From Escherichia phage ph0011, in the sequence record OP557969.1: a stretch of 64,000 nt of DNA; one strand, written 5' to 3'. Shown here piece by piece: positions 21,754-32,746 of this stretch; positions within the stretch are counted from its first letter, which is position 1; each line of letters opens with the position of its first letter. The position numbers and the translations under genes are program-made. The notes beneath the pieces were generated by a model. That model was not told where the DNA came from, searched no databases, and worked only from the letters and a program-made list of their open reading frames with translations.

Positions 21754-22347
21754 ATGACAAAGATTGAATTAGATGAAGCGATTAAAGGTTTATCTAATGT
21801 GTGTTTTAGTGGCGGGGCAGCAGGTGCTGACCGCCTTTTTTCTATCTATGCAAAAGATAATGGATTTGAAGTTGTTAATTTTTCATTTAAAGGTCATGAG
21901 CATAGTGTAGATGAAAATACTATATTAGAAATACCATCCAATATTCTATCTGATATTTCTATATTAAAGCAACTAAACATTGCATGTTACTCGTTGCAGA
22001 GAAAAGTACCAAAGCCTGGTTCTTATGTTTATAACTTACTTGCAAGGAATAGTTATCAAATACTTAATACAGAAAGAATATATTGTATTGCAAATATTAC
22101 ATCACCAACTAAGGTGAGTGGTGGTACTGCATGGGCAGTGCAGATGTACATGGATTCAGTTGAAAATCCTGAAATTTATTGTTATGATATGAATTCACGT
22201 TCTGTATTTTATTTTGACACAGTACTGAAAGAGTTTACTGAAACATTCTCAATACCAGAACCACACGGTAACTGGACTGGGATTGGTTCACGTAATGCTA
22301 CACAAAAACACATGGAACATTTTATTACATTTTTCAAGGAAGTATAA
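21754..22347 (+). CDS. SLOG/Rossmann-like protein (DprA/LOG-like glycine motif)
   Basis: 197 aa; FSGGAAGADR and later SGGTAWAV glycine-rich motifs; stop overlaps td start (TAATG). Confidence 0.4.
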   Translation: MTKIELDEAIKGLSNVCFSGGAAGADRLFSIYAKDNGFEVVNFSFKGHEHSVDENTILEIPSNILSDISILKQLNIACYSLQRKVPKPGSYVYNLLARNSYQILNTERIYCIANITSPTKVSGGTAWAVQMYMDSVENPEIYCYDMNSRSVFYFDTVLKEFTETFSIPEPHGNWTGIGSRNATQKHMEHFITFFKEV

Positions 22348-23987
22348 TGAAACAACTACAAGAACTATATCAAAAAATTCTAGATGAAGGCGTGGAAAGT
22401 GTTGACCGTACTGGTGTTGGTACAACCAAACTTATCGGTCAACAAATGCGTTTCGACCTTAACGATGGTTTTCCAGCAGTGACGACAAAACGTCTAGCAT
22501 GGAAAACAATGGTTGCTGAACTTTTATTTTTTATTAAAGGTATTCCAGACCGTCGAGTGATGCAGGAATTTTTACATGGTGAATTTAATGAAGATAAGAA
22601 CGATATTTGGAAAGGTAATTGTGTTGATATGAAAAATAAAAATCCATTAAAATTTAATGGATACAATTTAGGTAATATGTACCCAGTTTACTGGAGACGA
22701 ATGTATAAACCTGTTCCTAAAACAGTTAAAGTTAAACGTAAAAAAGACTTTGATTTTGAATATATTGAAAAATATAAATCATTTTATGATGATGTAGAAA
22801 TTGAAAAACATCATAAATCGGGTCAAACATTCATTGATATTAGGGGAGATGAGTTAGAATATCTTGGATTCAATGGACAGTATGAAAATAAACGACATTA
22901 TTTGAAATATAAGAACACGGGAACTATAATCAAACTCAATACATCTGAAATTGATATTAAACATAATAAACTTAATAGTGGTGAAGATTATTATAAAAAA
23001 AATTCAGTCGGTGGATATTTGGGTGCACCACGTGAAGTTCTTTCAAATGATCCATTGAACTCAAAAGTACAGAGCCTATGGTATAATATGCTTTCTCGTG
23101 TAAACACCTCTCCCAACTATAATAATATTAGTGTTAGCCCAAGGTGGTATAATTATTATAACTTCCTAACTGACATTCGTACTATACCACTGTTTTTTGA
23201 ATGGTTGGATGATCCAACATATTATGAATTAGATAAAGATTATTTTGGTTCATCTGTTTATTCAAGAAATACATGTACATTTTTACCCAAACATATCAAT
23301 CAAAAATTAATAAGAAAACGCAATGACTGTGCATTGGAAGTTGATGGAATACTTTATTATTCATTTACATGTTTTTATAAATCAATTTATGGTGGGAAAA
23401 CACAACCAAAAGATCCATTTACTTTTTTAGAAAATAACGGTCATACTTATATTATTCACGAAGAGACAGATGAATATGTATACCGTCCACAATTGTTTAT
23501 TGATCAATTAGAAACTGTTATTGAAAATATTAAACATGTCACCTTGAATGAAAATCATCCGGCTGGACGTAGATTGATTATGGATTCTTGGAATCCATCA
23601 TGGGAGGACGATTCAGTTCTGGGAATATGTCACCCATTTGTTCAATTCTTTGTAGTGAATGGAAAGCTGTCATGTGAGTTTTATATGCGTTCATCTGACA
23701 CATTTCTTGGATTACCACTGAATATATCATCATATGCATTATTGACGCACATGATTGCACAAATTACAGGTCTAGAAGTAGGAGAGCTAATTTACACTGC
23801 TGGTGATTGTCACATTTATAAAAATCACATTGAACAAGTAAAAGAACAACTACAACGAAAACCACGTGCATTACCTGAATTATGGATTGATCCTACTATT
23901 ACTGATATTGAAGATTTCACAATGGATTCTTTTAAATTGATTAATTACGATCCAATGCCAACAATTAAAGCACCGATGGCTGTATAA
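22347..23987 (+). CDS. td: thymidylate synthase (T4 Td-like) with about 260-aa in-frame insertion
   Basis: N-terminus DRTGVGT...GFPAVTTKRLAWK and C-terminus with catalytic Cys (ICHPFVQFF), DTFLGLPLNISSYALLTHM and PTIKAPMAV are ThyA-like; residues ~121-379 have no ThyA counterpart. Confidence 0.8.
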   Translation: MKQLQELYQKILDEGVESVDRTGVGTTKLIGQQMRFDLNDGFPAVTTKRLAWKTMVAELLFFIKGIPDRRVMQEFLHGEFNEDKNDIWKGNCVDMKNKNPLKFNGYNLGNMYPVYWRRMYKPVPKTVKVKRKKDFDFEYIEKYKSFYDDVEIEKHHKSGQTFIDIRGDELEYLGFNGQYENKRHYLKYKNTGTIIKLNTSEIDIKHNKLNSGEDYYKKNSVGGYLGAPREVLSNDPLNSKVQSLWYNMLSRVNTSPNYNNISVSPRWYNYYNFLTDIRTIPLFFEWLDDPTYYELDKDYFGSSVYSRNTCTFLPKHINQKLIRKRNDCALEVDGILYYSFTCFYKSIYGGKTQPKDPFTFLENNGHTYIIHEETDEYVYRPQLFIDQLETVIENIKHVTLNENHPAGRRLIMDSWNPSWEDDSVLGICHPFVQFFVVNGKLSCEFYMRSSDTFLGLPLNISSYALLTHMIAQITGLEVGELIYTAGDCHIYKNHIEQVKEQLQRKPRALPELWIDPTITDIEDFTMDSFKLINYDPMPTIKAPMAV

Positions 23988-23994
23988 ACGAAAA

Positions 23995-24020
23995 GGGAGA
24001 ACATATGTTCTCCCTTTTTT
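23995..24020. terminator. bidirectional terminator between convergent genes
   Basis: Perfect palindrome GGGAGAACA-TA-TGTTCTCCC flanked by A-run and T-run; td stops at 23987, minus-strand fibre gene stops at 24022. Confidence 0.6.
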
Positions 24021-24021
24021 A

Positions 24022-26313
24022 TTATCTAATTGTTACCAATGTTCTTCCGTCGAAACGTACATCAGGAGTTGAAGGTATACTAAACACCACGTTAGTGCCG
24101 TTAAACGTCACGCTATCGACCTCAACACGAGTATATACACCAGGGCTAATCTGTTCCTGTATCTCTGCTGTAACGATGTTTGAGGCTGTTACTGTAAGGG
24201 TGTATGAATCACCACTTAATACCCATGATGAAATAGTAAATGCGTCTGTCCTAACTGAACCTGAACCAATAGGAACCCATTGCCCTTTTACCTTTTGCAT
24301 AGAGGTTCGTTCGGATGTAGAGTATGCAATCATACCATCGACACCCACTGAGTTATCAATGCTTGCTAGTACTGGCAACTGAATACCATATCTATTAAAA
24401 CGTGTACGGATAGTTCCATTATCATAGATACTTACATCAGCATAATTACCCATAGAAAGTTTCAAATCCGCTCCATCCAATGTCATTGAACTTTGATTTG
24501 TATTACTTTCTAGTGTGAGTACACCGTTAGCTAATAAATTGATATTTTTAAATTTATTACTATTTCCTTTAAAAGTTGTATTAGCATTAAAAGTACTTGC
24601 ACCGTTAACTACAATAGTATTTTCTGCTGTGTCGCCTAATATGGTATTACCATTCAAAGTGGTTTCACCATCTACTACAATATTGGATTCGAAAGTACTA
24701 TTACCATTTACTACAAGATTGGATTTAAAAGTTCCATCACCATCTACGTCTACAGTAGAATGGAAAGTACTCTTACCATTAACCACAATAGTATTTTCTG
24801 CGGTATCACCCAATATGGTATTACTATGAACAGTCAAATTACCACTGGTGGTAACATTACTAGCTAGTGTATCACCATTCAATGTACTTGTTCCATCTAC
24901 TACAATATTGGATTTGAAAGTACTTTTACCATTAACCACAATAGTATTTTCTGGGGTTTCACCCAATGTTGTATTACCATGAACATTCAAATTACCACTA
25001 GCAGTAATATTACTAGCTAATGTATCACCAACCAATGTACTAGTACCATCTACTACAATATTACCATGAAAAGCACTTTCACCATTTTTGAATTCAACTT
25101 GTTCTTTATTCATTGAACTAAATGAAATGATATTACTACTTGCACTTATTCCAACATTAGTATTAGTTGGATTATCGAATCTCAGAACTGGCGTTGACGC
25201 AGGTGATGATGTTGATTGATATAATGTCAATGTCGAATTGGTAATTCTAATACGTTCAGTTCCAGAAGTACTGAATCCAATAGCATCATCAGCAGGATGA
25301 AAAATACCAGTATTCGTGTCTGACCATTTTTCAGGGTCATTACCTGGGTTGCTTACTGGGTCGTATGGGCTATTGTTAAATGCAATTGCTGGTGCGGTAG
25401 CACTACCATAGGTCACACCAAATCTACCACCTCCTACTGTACCATCGTCGTACATGGAATCACCAGTCCTACGTAAGCATTCAATTACAACGTTGTCGAT
25501 TGATGTTTGAACGGTTCCTGCATTCGTTCTAAATGGACGATTATTTGCAATCATGATAGTATTATCATATAATACTGAAGCTGCTGAAATACTAGTTCTT
25601 GATTGACGAAGGCGAATGTTTTTATCTTCAGTGATAATGATCCAATCACCATCTGATAGTGCTGTTTGGTTCATTGGTACACCGGATGCAAACGGTTTAG
25701 TTAAATCTTCATCAGTTGCTAAGTTTACTAGCCCACTATGACCAGTACTGGGAATGGCGGTAGATACAATTCTCGCAAAAGCATATGTTACGAGTTTAGC
25801 ACCAGAAATATTTGGATTAGAATCAACATAATATAAAATTTCTACCCAATCACCCTGACCAGTTGGGTTAGTTGGAGTGAATGTCACTGTACTTGTTGTT
25901 GGTTTATTAGCTTCAAAGTGTGCTTGTGCTGCATCTATAATACCACGTACAACATAATAATCACCACTAAGTGATGCTGTAGGTGCAGGTAGTGGACTTT
26001 GTGCCAAAGGTGGGTCTATATCATCAGGGATTGGATTATACGTACCAACAAATTGTAAACCACTAGTTACTGAATCTGGTAACTGTGATGTAAGAAGTTT
26101 GCCGTTAGCATCTAAGTTTGCAAAACGTCTATATGCCATCGAGCCATCTTCAAAATCCAGAACACCCTCGAATGATTTCCATTCTTTATTGTATCTAATC
26201 ATCCCTGATCTTATTACGTCAGCGGTTTCTTTTGATGGTGCTTTTGGTAACTCTAAAAAAGATTTACTATCAATAATTACACCACCATCACCTCTAATTC
26301 GATTTATACTCAT
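24022..26313 (-). CDS. tail fibre / receptor-binding protein with beta-helix-like repeats
   Basis: 763 aa; GAGG RBS; C-terminal ~40-aa repeats (ENTIVVNGKSTF three times); S/T/N/G-rich. Confidence 0.7.
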   Translation of the reverse strand: MSINRIRGDGGVIIDSKSFLELPKAPSKETADVIRSGMIRYNKEWKSFEGVLDFEDGSMAYRRFANLDANGKLLTSQLPDSVTSGLQFVGTYNPIPDDIDPPLAQSPLPAPTASLSGDYYVVRGIIDAAQAHFEANKPTTSTVTFTPTNPTGQGDWVEILYYVDSNPNISGAKLVTYAFARIVSTAIPSTGHSGLVNLATDEDLTKPFASGVPMNQTALSDGDWIIITEDKNIRLRQSRTSISAASVLYDNTIMIANNRPFRTNAGTVQTSIDNVVIECLRRTGDSMYDDGTVGGGRFGVTYGSATAPAIAFNNSPYDPVSNPGNDPEKWSDTNTGIFHPADDAIGFSTSGTERIRITNSTLTLYQSTSSPASTPVLRFDNPTNTNVGISASSNIISFSSMNKEQVEFKNGESAFHGNIVVDGTSTLVGDTLASNITASGNLNVHGNTTLGETPENTIVVNGKSTFKSNIVVDGTSTLNGDTLASNVTTSGNLTVHSNTILGDTAENTIVVNGKSTFHSTVDVDGDGTFKSNLVVNGNSTFESNIVVDGETTLNGNTILGDTAENTIVVNGASTFNANTTFKGNSNKFKNINLLANGVLTLESNTNQSSMTLDGADLKLSMGNYADVSIYDNGTIRTRFNRYGIQLPVLASIDNSVGVDGMIAYSTSERTSMQKVKGQWVPIGSGSVRTDAFTISSWVLSGDSYTLTVTASNIVTAEIQEQISPGVYTRVEVDSVTFNGTNVVFSIPSTPDVRFDGRTLVTIR

Positions 26314-27241: not shown

Positions 27242-30200
27242 TTAAGCGGTACGTTGAGCAATAAACATATCTGCTACTGAACTTACACCATCGTAAATTA
27301 CCTGATAGATAGTTACAGAGTTTGCAGTTTTATTTAGAGTCCCATCAACAACAGCATATGTACCATCAGTAGTAAAGTTTCTATTACCAGTTGCATCTTG
27401 TTTAACATAAATGTATACTGATGATGCTTTTCCACCACCGATTAGACCAGTGATTGGTGCTAGAGTAGTATCTTGATCAAGAGTGATGAAGTATACGTTG
27501 CTAGTACCGTCAGGGGTCCAAGTACCATTCGGTGCAATAACAGAGGAAGTTACTTTACTTGGAATAACATCATACTTTTTGGTAGTTACGGTTGTAGTGG
27601 CGAGTTCTGCGTTGGTTGTAGTTAACTTACCAGTAACAGTTACTTCTTTATCAAACACCGCATTTTCTTTGAAAGTTGGTGTTGAATTAACAGTTAGTGT
27701 GTCAGTATTAGTATTACCTAAAACCACACTACCACTTGCTGTCATCAAACCAGAAACAGTTAGTGTACCACCAATAGTTGCATTACCAGTTACTGATGCA
27801 CTAGCAAGTGTAGCTGCACCAGATGTAGTTATTGTTGTAACAGATGCTGCCTCTAGTGTGGTTGCACCAGTTGCGGTAAGTTTACCATCAACTACTAGAT
27901 CACCAGTTACGGATGCACCACCGGACATTGTTACTGCCCCACCGAATGAACCAGTTGTAATTACTTCAAGTGTGTTACCTTTTAGTAATTCAGTTGCTGT
28001 GATACTTGTACCAGCGGTAATGCTTGTACCCGCAGAAACAGTATTAGTTGCAGTTAAGGACTTCACAGCTACATCAGAGTTAGCTTGGTTAAGTTTAGCA
28101 TTTAGAGTACCTGTTACTGTGAAGTCACCGTTGTTAACAACATTACCATTGATAGTTAGATTGTTATTTTGTGAACCGACATCACCAATTGTTGCTGATT
28201 TAGAAATTAACTCAGCACCAGCGGTAATGTTGCCAGCAGCACTGATATTGTTTGCTGCAACAACTGCATAAGGTTCAATTGTTTGACCACTAACATCAAT
28301 ATCTGCGTTAATACCACCATCAACACGCAAAGAACCAGCAATATATGTATTAGGGAAAATCTGAACAGTTTCAGTGTGTTCACCGACCTGTGTACCAACA
28401 ATAACATTAGATCCAGTTTTCACTGCACCAGAAGTTGTTAGAGAACCTACTGTTGCTTTGCCAGTAACACCTAGTGTACCGCCAACAGTTGCATTATTAG
28501 TTACTGCCAATGCTGTTCCTTCACCATTCAGTGTAATTGATGGAGCAGTTGCTTTACCAGTTACATCTAGTGTACCACCAACAGTTGCATTACCATCTGA
28601 ATGTATTGTTGTTGCAACAGAAAGACTGTTTGCAATTACATCCGCACCAGTCAAATCCAATGCACCTGGTGTTAATGTACCAGTAATGTTAACATTATTA
28701 CCAAAGGTTGCTGCACCAGTTACATCTAGTGTAGTGCTAAATGTACCAGAAGTTGCAGAGATTGCACCAGATTCAAGTGAACCAACAGTGGTTTTTCCAG
28801 TTACACCCAGTGTACCACCAACTGTTCCATTTGTTGTAACTTCTAGTGTTCCAGTACTTAGATCTTTTGCTGTCACTTTACCAGATGCGTTAACAGTTGT
28901 TGTTGTAACACCACCACTTAGGGTGCTTGTCCCAGTAACACTGAGTGTTTTTGCTGCACTAACGCTGTTTACAGTAAGATCAGCACCTGATAGGTCTAAA
29001 CCACCTTCAGGAATAAAATTACCCTTAACTGTTAGTTGTTGAACAGTACTGTCACCAGTTACATCTAGTGTAGAAGCAGTCAAACCACCATTCATACTTG
29101 CTGCACCAGTAACATCTAGTGTAGTTGTTACAGTTGCACTGTTTAGTGTGGAGCTACCGGAAATATTAGCACTAGGTGCAGTAATAGATCCTTTTACAAC
29201 TTGTACATCACCCGCAACAACATCAATACCACCAGCATTAACTGTTAGTTTTTCAGCAGTATTCAACGTACTTGAAATTGTTGTTGCACCAGTTAAGGTT
29301 GTAGTTCCAGCTACACTTATGTTTCCAGAGATAGATGGATTACCTGTAATGTCACCAGTAGTGAGAACCAATTCAGTACCTACAGTAGTAGAACCAGTAC
29401 TTTCTAGTGTTACACCAACGATGTTTGCAGAACTTAGGTTAATAGTACCATCAACAGTTAAGTTACCGTGAACGGTCGCATCACCAAGTGAATTTAATGT
29501 TTTCACTGAAACATCAGTTTTACTAAGGTCAATTACACCCGCAGTAAGTGTTCCAGATACTGCCAAATTACCAGTTATTGCTGTATTTTTAGTAATAGAT
29601 ACTGTTTCTGATGCTGACGTAATGGAGCCAGCAGTAAGTGCCCCACCAATGGTTGCATTGTTAGTTACGGTTAACGCTGTTTCTTCACCAGATAGTGTTA
29701 AAGAAATACCATTCATTTCACCAGTAATATTTGCCGATGCCGCAGAAATATCACCAGCAACTACCGCATTTGTTGCGTTTAGGGTTGTTGTGGTAATTTC
29801 AGTACTTTTCACTTTAGGTAGTGCGTTGATACCATCTTTACTATTAACTGTAATAATACCAGAACTTGTTAGAGATTTAACAGAAACATCTGCACCACTT
29901 AAGTTAACTGTACCAGAAACAACTAGATCGCCACCAATATTAGCTCCTTCTGTTGTAGTGATTGATTTTGCATTAACTTCAGTGTTACTCAAATCAATTG
30001 CACCAGGTGATACAGTTCCAGAAACTGTGAGATTACCAGTAACTGTAGTATCATTAGAAATAGATACGCCATCATCATTGCTAATTGTTGGGGTTTCAAT
30101 TGTAACAGCTTTAACTTTACCAGAAGAAGTCATGTCAGCAACAGTAGATGCACCAGTGACCTTTAGATTAGTAATATTTGCAGTAGTTGAGCCAAGTGTA

Positions 30201-32746
30201 GTAATCGTACCATCAGTACTTTCTAGTTTAGGAAGAACACTAGCAATAGAAGATTCGTTACTAACAATTGCACCAGTACTAGTTAAAGATTTGACAGTAA
30301 CATCAGCCGTAGTAAGATCTACTGTACCATTAACAGTTAGGTTACCACCAATAGTTGCACCAGCAGTAGTAGTAATGGATTTAGCATTAACATCAGTTGT
30401 TGCTAGATCGATAGAACCTGGAATAACTGCACCAGTAACGGTTAGGTCACCAGTTACATTTGTATTATTGGAAATAGTGACACCACTTGCATTTGAAATG
30501 GTTGGGGTAACCAACGATGCAGTTGTAGTTTCACCAGTTACAGTTAAAGTTGACCCAACTAGAACAGATGAGCTTGAGTAAATTGTACCCAAATTAGCAG
30601 ATCCGGTAACAGTTATATCATCAGCATTAACAGTAGTTGTCGTTATGGTAGTACTATTAAGTACTGGAAGTACGTTAGCATTAACAAGATCATTACTTTT
30701 AACAATACCAGAAGTAGTTAATGATTTAACATTAAGGTTGGCTGCTGATAAATCAAAAGAGCCTTGAACTACTAAATCACCACCAATAGTTGCACCAGCA
30801 GTAGTAGTGATTGATTTAGCATTAATATCGGTAGTGCTCAAGTCTAGAGAACCAACAGTTAAGCTACCAGTAATATCAACATTTTCGGTGAAGTTAGTAT
30901 CACCACTAATAGTTGGTGCAGTAAGATTTGTTGCACTAATATTAGTACCGTTAATTGTTTGCCCACTTACAGTTCCACTCGCAGTGATAGTAGGAGCCGT
31001 TACTTCAGTAGATGCACTAATTGTTGGTGCAGATACAGAAGTTGTACCAGTAATAGTACCAGAACTTACTGAACCAGCGGATAATGCACCAGAAAGAGTT
31101 GCAGTTGTACCAGCAATATCACCAGTAACAGTTAGTTTAGCACCCACGGTAGTGTTACCAGTACTTTCAAGTGTTGCACCTTTAATATTTGCTGCCGCGA
31201 CAACAGAATTAGGTGTTAGATCTTGACCACTAACATCAACAGTTAGTCCAGTTACTGTTCCAGTAAATTCAACATCATTAAGAATTGCCTTACCACCAAC
31301 TGTAAGGTATGGTGTACTTGGGTCTTGAGTATCGTTACCAGTGATAGTTAGATAATCTAGTTTGTTTAGGCCGTTACCAGTAATACCATAAGAAGATAGT
31401 GATGCATTACCAAAGGTAGCAGTTTTAAGTACTTTCAATGTTGCTGGGGAAACCAACTCAGATTGAACTTCATTAGGTAAAATAACGGTTGGACGTTTAT
31501 CTTGTGCGGTATACGCAAAACCTAGTTTCACAGCAGAATCTTGTGAATTTTGACCTAAACTAATAGCTTTAAAAGAAGCAGTACCGTTTAAACCAGTAAT
31601 ATTAGATCCTAGTGTAACACCACCAACTAAAGAAGACGCACCCTTTATATTTAAAGTGTTTGCATCAATATCATCAAGTTGGAAATCACCACCAAATGTA
31701 CCGGAAACATTAATATTATTAAAATTAGCAGTACCAGTACTTTCAATATCTGGAATGGTTGCTGTTCCAGTAACCTCAAAATCAGCAACTTTAGTTTTAC
31801 CTTTTGTCACTTCTAGAAGTGGGGTGTCAGGTGATTGTGTATCGTTACCAGAAACGGTTAGATAATCTAGTTTGTTTAGACCATTACCAGTAATACCATA
31901 AGAAGACAATGATGCATTACCAAAAGTAGCAGAAGTTAAAACTGTCAATTTAGCAGGTGACATTAATTCAGATTGAATTTCATTTTGTAGAATTACTGTT
32001 GGACGTTTATCAGGAGCACTGTAAGGGAAGCTCAATCTGGAGGTTTGTGATTCAGAGTCGGTTCCGATACGGATATCTTTAAATGTAGCAGTGCTATTAA
32101 TACCAGTTACGTTAGCACCAAAAGTTACCGCACCTTTTTGATTAGATGCACCAGTAACATTCAATGTTTCAGCGTTTAAATCAGAAAGATTAAACTCGCC
32201 ACCTAGTGTACCACTAATATTCACATCTTGAAACTCAGCAGTGCCAGTACTAGTAATGTCAGTTGCGGTAATAGTTGTAATTTCTGCGGAATTGGAAGTA
32301 ATTTTATCAAAAGCAGCGGTTGTACCAACCTCAGCAGATAAGTCCCCTTTAAGTGTTGTTTCTCCCACAACTTCTAAGCTTTTTACTTTAGTTGATTGTA
32401 GTGTGGTTGAACCAGCAGTTTGTGAAAAATCACTACCCACCGACACAGTACCGTTAAACGTAGCACTTGAATTGATTGTTACTGTATCAGAACCACCATC
32501 TGCACTGCCGATTGTGGTATTTCCAGTAATATCAAGGCCACCACTTAATGTTGCTTTACCACCAACATCTAAAGTAGAGTTGATGATAGCTGTTTCAGTT
32601 TCAATAGCAGTAAATGTTGCGTTTGCAAAAGAGATACTACCATCTACTCTTAGGTTATTCTTGATTACTGCATTACCTTTGACTAATAGATCCTTACCAA
32701 CTGTTCCAGCACCAGTAATATCTAAGTCAGTTTTTATTGAGTACAT
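27242..32746 (-). CDS. long tail fibre protein
   Basis: 1834 aa; GGAGGG RBS; extreme T/S/G/N/V composition typical of beta-structured fibres; large internal tandem duplications. Confidence 0.75.
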   Translation of the reverse strand: MYSIKTDLDITGAGTVGKDLLVKGNAVIKNNLRVDGSISFANATFTAIETETAIINSTLDVGGKATLSGGLDITGNTTIGSADGGSDTVTINSSATFNGTVSVGSDFSQTAGSTTLQSTKVKSLEVVGETTLKGDLSAEVGTTAAFDKITSNSAEITTITATDITSTGTAEFQDVNISGTLGGEFNLSDLNAETLNVTGASNQKGAVTFGANVTGINSTATFKDIRIGTDSESQTSRLSFPYSAPDKRPTVILQNEIQSELMSPAKLTVLTSATFGNASLSSYGITGNGLNKLDYLTVSGNDTQSPDTPLLEVTKGKTKVADFEVTGTATIPDIESTGTANFNNINVSGTFGGDFQLDDIDANTLNIKGASSLVGGVTLGSNITGLNGTASFKAISLGQNSQDSAVKLGFAYTAQDKRPTVILPNEVQSELVSPATLKVLKTATFGNASLSSYGITGNGLNKLDYLTITGNDTQDPSTPYLTVGGKAILNDVEFTGTVTGLTVDVSGQDLTPNSVVAAANIKGATLESTGNTTVGAKLTVTGDIAGTTATLSGALSAGSVSSGTITGTTSVSAPTISASTEVTAPTITASGTVSGQTINGTNISATNLTAPTISGDTNFTENVDITGSLTVGSLDLSTTDINAKSITTTAGATIGGDLVVQGSFDLSAANLNVKSLTTSGIVKSNDLVNANVLPVLNSTTITTTTVNADDITVTGSANLGTIYSSSSVLVGSTLTVTGETTTASLVTPTISNASGVTISNNTNVTGDLTVTGAVIPGSIDLATTDVNAKSITTTAGATIGGNLTVNGTVDLTTADVTVKSLTSTGAIVSNESSIASVLPKLESTDGTITTLGSTTANITNLKVTGASTVADMTSSGKVKAVTIETPTISNDDGVSISNDTTVTGNLTVSGTVSPGAIDLSNTEVNAKSITTTEGANIGGDLVVSGTVNLSGADVSVKSLTSSGIITVNSKDGINALPKVKSTEITTTTLNATNAVVAGDISAASANITGEMNGISLTLSGEETALTVTNNATIGGALTAGSITSASETVSITKNTAITGNLAVSGTLTAGVIDLSKTDVSVKTLNSLGDATVHGNLTVDGTINLSSANIVGVTLESTGSTTVGTELVLTTGDITGNPSISGNISVAGTTTLTGATTISSTLNTAEKLTVNAGGIDVVAGDVQVVKGSITAPSANISGSSTLNSATVTTTLDVTGAASMNGGLTASTLDVTGDSTVQQLTVKGNFIPEGGLDLSGADLTVNSVSAAKTLSVTGTSTLSGGVTTTTVNASGKVTAKDLSTGTLEVTTNGTVGGTLGVTGKTTVGSLESGAISATSGTFSTTLDVTGAATFGNNVNITGTLTPGALDLTGADVIANSLSVATTIHSDGNATVGGTLDVTGKATAPSITLNGEGTALAVTNNATVGGTLGVTGKATVGSLTTSGAVKTGSNVIVGTQVGEHTETVQIFPNTYIAGSLRVDGGINADIDVSGQTIEPYAVVAANNISAAGNITAGAELISKSATIGDVGSQNNNLTINGNVVNNGDFTVTGTLNAKLNQANSDVAVKSLTATNTVSAGTSITAGTSITATELLKGNTLEVITTGSFGGAVTMSGGASVTGDLVVDGKLTATGATTLEAASVTTITTSGAATLASASVTGNATIGGTLTVSGLMTASGSVVLGNTNTDTLTVNSTPTFKENAVFDKEVTVTGKLTTTNAELATTTVTTKKYDVIPSKVTSSVIAPNGTWTPDGTSNVYFITLDQDTTLAPITGLIGGGKASSVYIYVKQDATGNRNFTTDGTYAVVDGTLNKTANSVTIYQVIYDGVSSVADMFIAQRTA
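29400..30900 (-). repeat. intragenic tandem repeat array, about 4 units of ~435 bp
   Basis: Protein units of ~145 aa each containing D(I/V)NAKSITTT.GA.IGG..V...V.L..A.V.VKSLT; matching DNA near 29930, 30370 and 30800; boundaries approximate. Confidence 0.5.
31250..32260 (-). repeat. intragenic tandem duplication, two units of ~510 bp
   Basis: Protein segments ~aa 162-330 and 331-500 highly similar (KRPTVIL.NE.QSEL.SPA.L.VL..ATFGNASLSSYGITGNGLNKLDYLT); DNA copies recognisable by eye; boundaries approximate. Confidence 0.55.

Follow-up and report, generated by a model that had tools for sequence, protein, structure and literature searches.

The 64,000-nucleotide (nt) stretch of Escherichia phage ph0011 analysed here (OP557969.1; the whole stretch is referred to as the window) carries on its minus strand, at 27242..32746, an open reading frame (ORF) for a giant tail-fibre protein of 1834 amino acids (aa). 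An original prediction, made from the letters of the sequence alone, placed large tandem duplications within this gene, which raises the question of whether such repeats exist, how they arose, and whether they alter the length of the fibre among related phages. The explanation that we consider very probable is that the myophage is an Asteriusvirus-like jumbo phage, that the protein is its largest fibre protein, and that modules multiplied by ancient duplication have since been gained and lost as whole units by unequal recombination.

The gene is the orthologue of 121Q gene 571 and phAPEC6 gp256. It is ∼86% identical in nt sequence, over 100% of its length, to its Asteriusvirus orthologues (121Q, PBECO4, phAPEC6, UE-S1 and others), all from jumbo coliphages with genomes of 320-386 kb, and the protein matches the PHROG 4549 tail fibre family with an E-value of 8.7e-216. 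The gene order around it is syntenic with 121Q genes 569-574; homology and neighbourhood both place it in the gene 571 group. In GenBank, the orthologues are labelled ‘tail fiber protein’, ‘long tail fiber proximal subunit’ or ‘hypothetical protein’.

Repeat units in the giant fibre gene

The predicted repeats are real: self-BLAST and a dot-plot both gave signals far above shuffled controls, and hidden Markov models (HMMs) of the units placed the individual copies. At the DNA level, self-BLAST aligned 31835-32011 with 31325-31501 at an offset of 510 nt (82.5% identity over 177 nt, E 2e-47) and 30272-30835 with 29858-30400 at an offset of 435 nt (65.6% over 575 nt, E 2e-28), with additional offsets of 849 nt (435 + 414) and 465 nt. 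The self dot-plot that had been suggested as a check was run on the protein, scoring diagonals in 40-aa windows with BLOSUM62. Offsets of 170, 145, 138 and 155 aa scored 183, 147, 147 and 108, respectively, against a maximum of 64 in 10 composition-preserving shuffles. Tandem Repeats Finder reported no long-period array in the fibre gene because the units are too diverged for it, and blastp of the whole protein against itself returned the identity match only.

Unit boundaries were set by local alignments and unit HMMs and are given here from the N-terminus, with all features on the minus strand. The region preceding the first A unit (aa 1-154, 32285..32746) is presumed to be the attachment end of the fibre. 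It is followed by A1 (aa 155-324, 31775..32284; HMM 334 bits) and A2 (aa 325-494, 31265..31774; supported by local alignment, unit HMM and in-register nt comparison). The two ∼510-bp units of high identity that had been predicted are correct in number and size, each being 510 nt long, but not in their overall similarity: A1 and A2 are 62% identical in aa sequence by local alignment and 63% identical in nt sequence in register, with 82% reached only in a 177-nt conserved core. This core, the pair detected by self-BLAST, lies at 31835..32011 in A1, where it encodes ...TATFGNASLSSYGITGNGLNKLDYLT..., and at 31325..31501 in A2, and is also the crossover site in phage CRJP21 described below.

A linker between the arrays (aa 495-605, 30932..31264) shows 11- and 16-residue periodicities by autocorrelation and aligns to the shaft of the phage phiTE fibre. 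Beyond it, about four ∼435-bp units of lower identity had been expected, and four B units were found, 414-465 nt in length and with neighbours sharing 38-52% aa identity. These are B1 (aa 606-750, 30497..30931), B2 (aa 751-888, 30083..30496), B3 (aa 889-1043, 29618..30082) and B4 (aa 1044-1171, 29234..29617), with identities of 47% between B1 and B2, 52% between B2 and B3, and 38% between B3 and B4, the most degenerate copy (HMM 140 bits). Together, the A and B arrays span 29234-32284, nearly identical to the predicted 29400-32260. Adjoining this range on the outside is a C-type pair that was absent from the prediction (aa 1203-1329 and 1333-1442, 28421..29140), comprising units of about 336-390 nt with 45% aa identity. 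The C-terminal domain (aa 1648-1831, 27254..27805), which is common to the 793-aa phiTE fibre, is presumed to be the distal or receptor end.

With lengths of 510 nt for A, 435, 414 and 465 nt for B, and 336 nt for C, the units are arranged as a tandem array: head-to-tail, directly abutting and in frame. The corresponding protein modules measure 170 aa (A), 138-155 aa (B) and about 110-127 aa (C). No other carriers of A or B units were found in the window.

Age of the duplications

Orthologous units group together. A1 of the window is 86% identical in nt sequence to A1 of 121Q, while any A1 compared with any A2 gives ∼63%. The A-A pair is also present in homologues that are only about 30% identical, encoded by phages of Salmonella, Cronobacter, Erwinia, Serratia, Pectobacterium and Xanthomonas. 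These comparisons show the duplications to be ancient, with copies that have since diverged to 38-62% aa identity. At positions of the A core where the aa are identical, the same codon is used in 63% of cases, against 49% expected from codon usage. Because this is little above the expectation, the core appears to have been kept mainly by selection at the protein level, and recent gene conversion was rejected as the main cause of its 82% identity.

Copy-number variation among relatives

The comparison of copy number among isolates, another check that had been proposed, revealed differences of whole units: two versus three in the A array, and one C unit more in both UB and CRJP21. The orthologues are 1827 aa long in the closest relative (the metagenomic protein P0001), 1834 aa in the window, 1841 aa in 121Q, 1959 aa in UB, 1988 aa in vB_Ec-M-J and 2129 aa in CRJP21. 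When the window, 121Q, UB and CRJP21 proteins were aligned, they differed at four sites, namely a 170-aa block in the A array, a 112-aa block in the C array (a gap at aa ∼1309 of the window protein) and two indels of 6-7 aa. Unit HMMs located three contiguous A units in CRJP21 (155-324, 325-494 and 495-664) and two each in the window, 121Q and UB. The additional 170 aa are a third A unit, present in CRJP21 and JP4, and the additional 112 aa are the extra C unit, a tandem copy of 336 nt that in UB shares 90% identity with the unit beside it over 410 nt. The layout is two A and four B units (2A+4B) in the window, 121Q, UB and P0001 (88% identical, on a 344-kb contig), and 3A+4B in CRJP21.

A tblastn search of one A unit against 50,697 phage records extended this count to whole genomes. 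Two A units per genome were found in the 121Q group (at least 17 records), three in CRJP21 and JP4, four in nine phages with a second, paralogous fibre gene (e.g., vB_Ec-M-J, with proteins of 1988 and 1049 aa), and five in JNE01 and Turkey5. Three A units within one protein also occur in JNE01, Turkey5 and P0002, and in the distant homologues P0010 and P0013. The second giant fibre gene stands beside the orthologue in some Asteriusvirus relatives; the two JNE01 genes (L005 3494-8380 and 8519-14881) encode proteins of 1628 aa with two A units and 2120 aa with three, and the 1049-aa paralogue of vB_Ec-M-J is located at L004 9716-9973 onward. No paralogous giant fibre gene was found in the window.

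The A module is rare. A profile search of 1.84 billion representative proteins recovered only 49 carriers. Across the wider family it occurs one, two or three times: among 76 family proteins it was single in 29, double in 29 and triple in four, with the remaining 14 lacking a full-length unit. Single-A fibres, the phiTE-like ones included, are mostly 480-1174 aa long and carry the module at about aa 160-320 in nearly all cases; in nearly all members of the family it begins at about aa 155-180. The number of B units across the family ranges from two to four.

Junctions and the proposed recombination mechanism

That the arrays drive length variation of the fibre by recombination, as the original prediction suggested, is supported both by length gaps that equal whole units and by the chimeric nature of the extra A unit in CRJP21. 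This middle unit is of A2 type over nt 1-345 (94.5% identical to A2 of UB) and of A1 type over nt 346-510 (about 90%), with the switch at unit nt ∼345, inside the conserved core. Parts of its first ∼90 nt are 100% identical to the third unit of the same gene. Judged by its sequence, the extra unit is the product expected from unequal crossing-over, in which A2 of one molecule paired out of register with A1 of another. The middle A unit of JNE01 switches after about 30-60 nt, with patches, and its first 60 nt are closest (91.7%) to A2 of the neighbouring paralogue. Because its breakpoint differs from that of CRJP21, the third A unit of JNE01 was an independent event. In 121Q, the single C unit is itself chimeric, its 5′ part matching copy 1 of UB and its 3′ part copy 2, which is consistent with deletion by the reciprocal process. 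Copy-number polymorphism with hybrid junction units, the pattern of an array subject to unequal crossover, is seen among the relatives.

A further trace of exchange is a ∼950-nt tract covering the linker, B1 and B2 (∼30350..31300, minus strand), which by sliding nt and aa identity is 96-99% identical to 121Q, while the fibre gene outside it is 73-91% identical. The tract looks like a recent recombination patch, and its high identity indicates that homologous exchange between related phages has been recent in this gene.

We therefore propose the following mechanism. The shaft would consist of in-frame modules (two A, four B and two C) generated by ancient intragenic tandem duplication, the copies of which have diverged far enough to be unambiguous in assembly and mostly stable. 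Their conserved cores would permit occasional unequal homologous recombination, whether within a genome, between co-infecting relatives or with paralogous fibre genes. Each event would gain or lose one whole module, and would do so in frame because all unit lengths are multiples of three, leaving close relatives with fibres of different lengths.

Structural relatives of the fibre

The only relative by sequence in the PDB (phmmer, E ≤ 1) was a 793-aa ‘putative tail fiber protein’ of phage phiTE (9CUY chain g / 9MJN, E 1e-26). Profile searches with the A and B units led to this relative alone. Residues 616-792 of chain 9CUY_g align with aa 1648-1831 of the window protein (domain E 5e-11), revealing a shared C-terminal domain. 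Only one A module is present in the phiTE protein (residues 177-322; profile E 4e-23), where the window protein has two; likewise, a 168-position A profile gave two full-length matches in the window protein (189 and 186 bits) and one in the phiTE-like protein P0038. The beta-rich shaft of the phiTE fibre has segments in common with that of the window protein, although the two differ greatly in length (793 versus 1834 aa). Their N-terminal ∼170 residues are unlike: BLASTP of aa 1-172 against P0038 found no significant match, the best being off-register with an E-value of 0.06.

Chain 9CUY_g is probably, as we assume here, the phiTE long tail fibre (LTF) described as trimeric and predicted to measure 512 Å and to contain a long beta-helix (PMC11972413). 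Only residues 14-171 of that LTF were built experimentally, and the built part is thus without the A module and the shaft (PMC11972413). By analogy, the window protein would form a homotrimeric, beta-rich fibre in which each module may represent one structural segment of the shaft.

Domain searches gave little beyond this. The Pfam Bactofilin family (PF04519) scored 37.6 bits for the whole protein against a cut-off of 27.9, as the sum of nine weak stretches in the B/C region, none of which passes alone at E 0.01, and no discrete domain was recovered. Bactofilins are cytoskeletal domains of ∼100 residues, whereas the window protein is an 1834-aa virion protein, and its closest relative P0001 scores only 12.9 bits. 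The signal suggests beta-helix-like periodicity in the sequence and not membership of the family. A monomeric bactofilin-like solenoid was considered and rejected, given the sub-threshold stretches and fold models that had neither secondary structure nor a PDB match. The NCBIfam scan of the window protein returned nothing. PF26209 and PF26208, which are precomputed for the homologues P0001-P0029, were not recovered from P0001, P0005 and P0026 in a scan with the local Pfam library, and are possibly outside it.

Alternative explanations

Two of the alternatives would make the repeats, or their number, an artefact. The protein is strongly skewed in composition (18.6% Thr, 11.6% Gly and 10.7% Ser, rich also in Val and Ala, and with no Cys), many short ‘families’ of 20-58 nt with 60-70% identity are scattered in the gene, and the weak Bactofilin match itself hints at a beta-helix. 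Apparent repeats could in principle be a by-product of this T/G/S/V/A bias combined with the short beta-helix periodicity of fibre shafts, with no duplication at all. This reading, to which we give practically no credence, was refuted by the shuffle controls, which did not exceed 64 where 108-183 was seen, and by unit boundaries conserved across orthologues. The 170-aa in-register alignments reach 62% identity, the BLAST E-values are as low as 2e-47 and 2e-28, and in every orthologue the unit HMMs find separate units of full length, always at the same positions. The repeats being genuine, they might still have been collapsed or expanded during assembly; near-identical tandem copies of 400-500 nt can collapse in short-read assemblies, and relatives with three A units do exist. 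The original prediction had warned that the repeats may confound assembly and that the copy number needed verification, a concern that did not hold up. Exact repeats within the gene reach 30 nt at most, between B1 and B2, every 31-mer in it is unique, and A1 and A2, 63% identical in nt, have no exact stretch longer than 23 nt in common. The ORF is uninterrupted, two A units are also found in at least 17 other, independent phage genome records, and the 2A+4B layout is common to the close orthologues 121Q, UB and P0001, the last on its own 344-kb contig. Since the copies are old and diverged, and not recent duplicates of high identity, the repeats should not confound assembly; an artefactual copy number is very improbable and that of the window is not in doubt.

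A more substantial alternative is that the length differences among isolates reflect cassette exchange, i.e., the import of ready-made segments with other phages or a paralogous fibre gene as donors. The gene is mosaic, as the ∼950-nt tract shared with 121Q attests, and some relatives hold a potential donor next door (the 1628-aa protein of JNE01 and the 1049-aa protein of vB_Ec-M-J). The paralogue's A2 is the best match to the opening 60 nt of the middle A unit in JNE01, and neither half of the CRJP21 chimera matches the units that flank it in the same gene perfectly, the identities being 90-95%. Against this, a junction between A2-type and A1-type sequence is out of register even when the donor is foreign, and is therefore unequal recombination by definition. 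CRJP21 has no paralogue, its three A units being the total, and both halves of its chimera fall within the diversity of the 121Q/PBECO4 group. Import of finished segments is thus improbable as the general source of the length differences, and module duplication followed by unequal recombination remains the explanation that we favour.

Several observations nevertheless weigh against that explanation or against parts of it. The copies from which the CRJP21 chimera was formed show only about 90-95% identity to extant units, which means that the event was not recent or that another co-infecting strain was involved; a strictly intragenomic crossover in CRJP21 is not proven. Because pairs of units share only 23-30 nt of perfect identity, exchange of the RecA or UvsX type should be rare, and template switching during replication, which gives the same products, is equally possible. 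An effect of copy number on fibre length or host range is a prediction only. The idea of one unit per shaft segment found no support in structural models: the AlphaFold2 monomers predicted for a single A unit (from a 42-row alignment) and for B2-B3 (from a 26-row alignment) had a mean confidence (predicted local distance difference test, pLDDT) of ∼75, a predicted template modelling score (pTM) of ∼0.4 and essentially no secondary structure by DSSP, and a Foldseek search of both models against the PDB returned zero matches. Against the BFVD set of predicted viral structures, the B model matched a 172-residue unnamed protein (E 7e-5) and gave otherwise weak matches. Absence of structure within single modelled chains would be expected of chains that need their trimer partners, but proves nothing.

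Fibre length and the whiskers of related phages

Mass spectrometry of purified phAPEC6 virions identified gp256 as a 180 kDa protein with 15 peptides (PMC7247149), and the CBB orthologue CBB_226 was likewise found in virions, with 10 peptides (PMC5259590). Incorporation into the virion is thereby established for these orthologues, and homology predicts the same for the window protein. Scaling from the phiTE fibre (793 aa, about 51 nm), a protein of 1834 aa might extend to about 118 nm, with an A module contributing ∼11 nm and a C module ∼7 nm, and trimeric fibres of 1560-1834 aa would measure about 100-120 nm.

These figures invite comparison with the hairs of CBB, which are 119 ± 10 nm long, against 28.6 nm for its baseplate fibres (PMC5259590). 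In both CBB and phAPEC6 the hairs are described on the tail and the capsid, with no gene assigned to them (PMC5259590, PMC7247149). The fibre gene is present in both of these hairy phages. It was reported to be absent from RaK2 (PMC5259590), and RaK2/K64-1 were not among the A-unit tblastn matches in the 50,697 phage records. A tentative possibility, on balance unlikely, is that the giant fibre forms the ∼120-nm appendage, called a ‘hair’ or ‘whisker’, that these phages bear on tail and capsid, and is not one of the six short baseplate fibres, with the count of A, B and C modules acting as an evolvable length ruler. If this were true, module count would set the reach of the whisker through capsule or O-antigen.

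Genomic setting

Downstream of the fibre gene lies a gene for a 259-aa DUF4376 structural protein, and upstream are genes for a structural protein of 298 aa and for a tailspike-like protein that degrades colanic acid; all of these neighbours are also present in 121Q. The DUF4376 protein is a candidate fibre partner by position only. Elsewhere, the window encodes tail sheath, baseplate wedge and hub/lysozyme proteins and a 3333-aa virion protein. Four antisense ORFs on the plus strand overlap the fibre gene (27483-28271, 28374-29042, 29622-30581 and 30807-31226; 139-319 aa). They are probably spurious, arising because repetitive ACN/GGN/GTN-rich codons leave the opposite strand poor in stops.

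Two other ORFs differ in length from their 121Q counterparts. A 763-aa ORF at 24022-26313 (minus strand, PHROG 14293) occupies the position of the shorter 121Q gene 569 (654 aa). The fit to the PHROG 14293 profile is good over the first ∼469 residues only, from which it follows that the C-terminal part of the product may have been exchanged. The thymidylate synthase (TS) ORF at 22347-23987 (plus strand) encodes 546 aa here versus 309 aa in 121Q, owing to a ∼240-aa in-frame insert (about aa 140-385) between the two TS halves. The insert bears an HNH-endonuclease-like domain (PHROG 2081, aa 178-337) and may be an intein or a mobile endonuclease insertion of another kind. Where the TS and 763-aa ORFs converge, sub-threshold Rfam matches occur on both strands at 23931-24046 (sraA, 36.5 bits against a gathering threshold of 56, and MicX), most likely reflecting a bidirectional terminator hairpin or chance.

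Significance and comparison with known fibres

Viral fibre shafts built of repeats, with a length set by repeat number, are well known from adenovirus and from the internal repeats of T-even phages. What was found here is real, yet an ordinary route by which viral fibres change length. Our literature search found no paper on these repeats in Asteriusvirus fibres. Specific to this case are the three large kinds of module (112-170 aa), the one-two-three series of the A module in a rare family, and the clean chimeric junctions in sequenced isolates. Together these provide a junction-level example of a jumbo-phage fibre growing and shrinking by whole modules, and they show the repeats to be safe for assembly. 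The natural length variants (121Q, UB and CRJP21/JP4) could be used to probe the effect of fibre or whisker length on adsorption and host range, in phages that are considered for therapy against O157 and avian pathogenic Escherichia coli (APEC) strains.

The comparison with T4 also corrects a misleading annotation. T4 gp34 is a fibre protein of very large size in which domains are repeated internally, and fragments of it are presumably present in the PDB. No similarity to gp34 was found in the PDB-wide phmmer search (E ≤ 1), in the A and B unit profile searches, or in Pfam, PHROG and NCBIfam. The two proteins are alike in being very large and internally repeated, with no detectable similarity in sequence, and the label ‘long tail fiber proximal subunit’ is best read as an analogy only.

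The adenovirus fibre offers another parallel. It is trimeric, and its length varies with the number of ∼15-residue triple beta-spiral repeats in the shaft, which are gained and lost in frame. Its units are far smaller than the 112-170-residue modules of the window protein, which are of three kinds and bear no sequence relationship to them. In T-even phages, Tetart et al. (1998) are said to have described conserved motifs in gp37/gp38 that serve as crossover points for the reshuffling of fibre segments. Such recombination exchanges adhesin specificity between phages, whereas the outcome documented for the giant fibre described here is the gain or loss of whole modules of the shaft.

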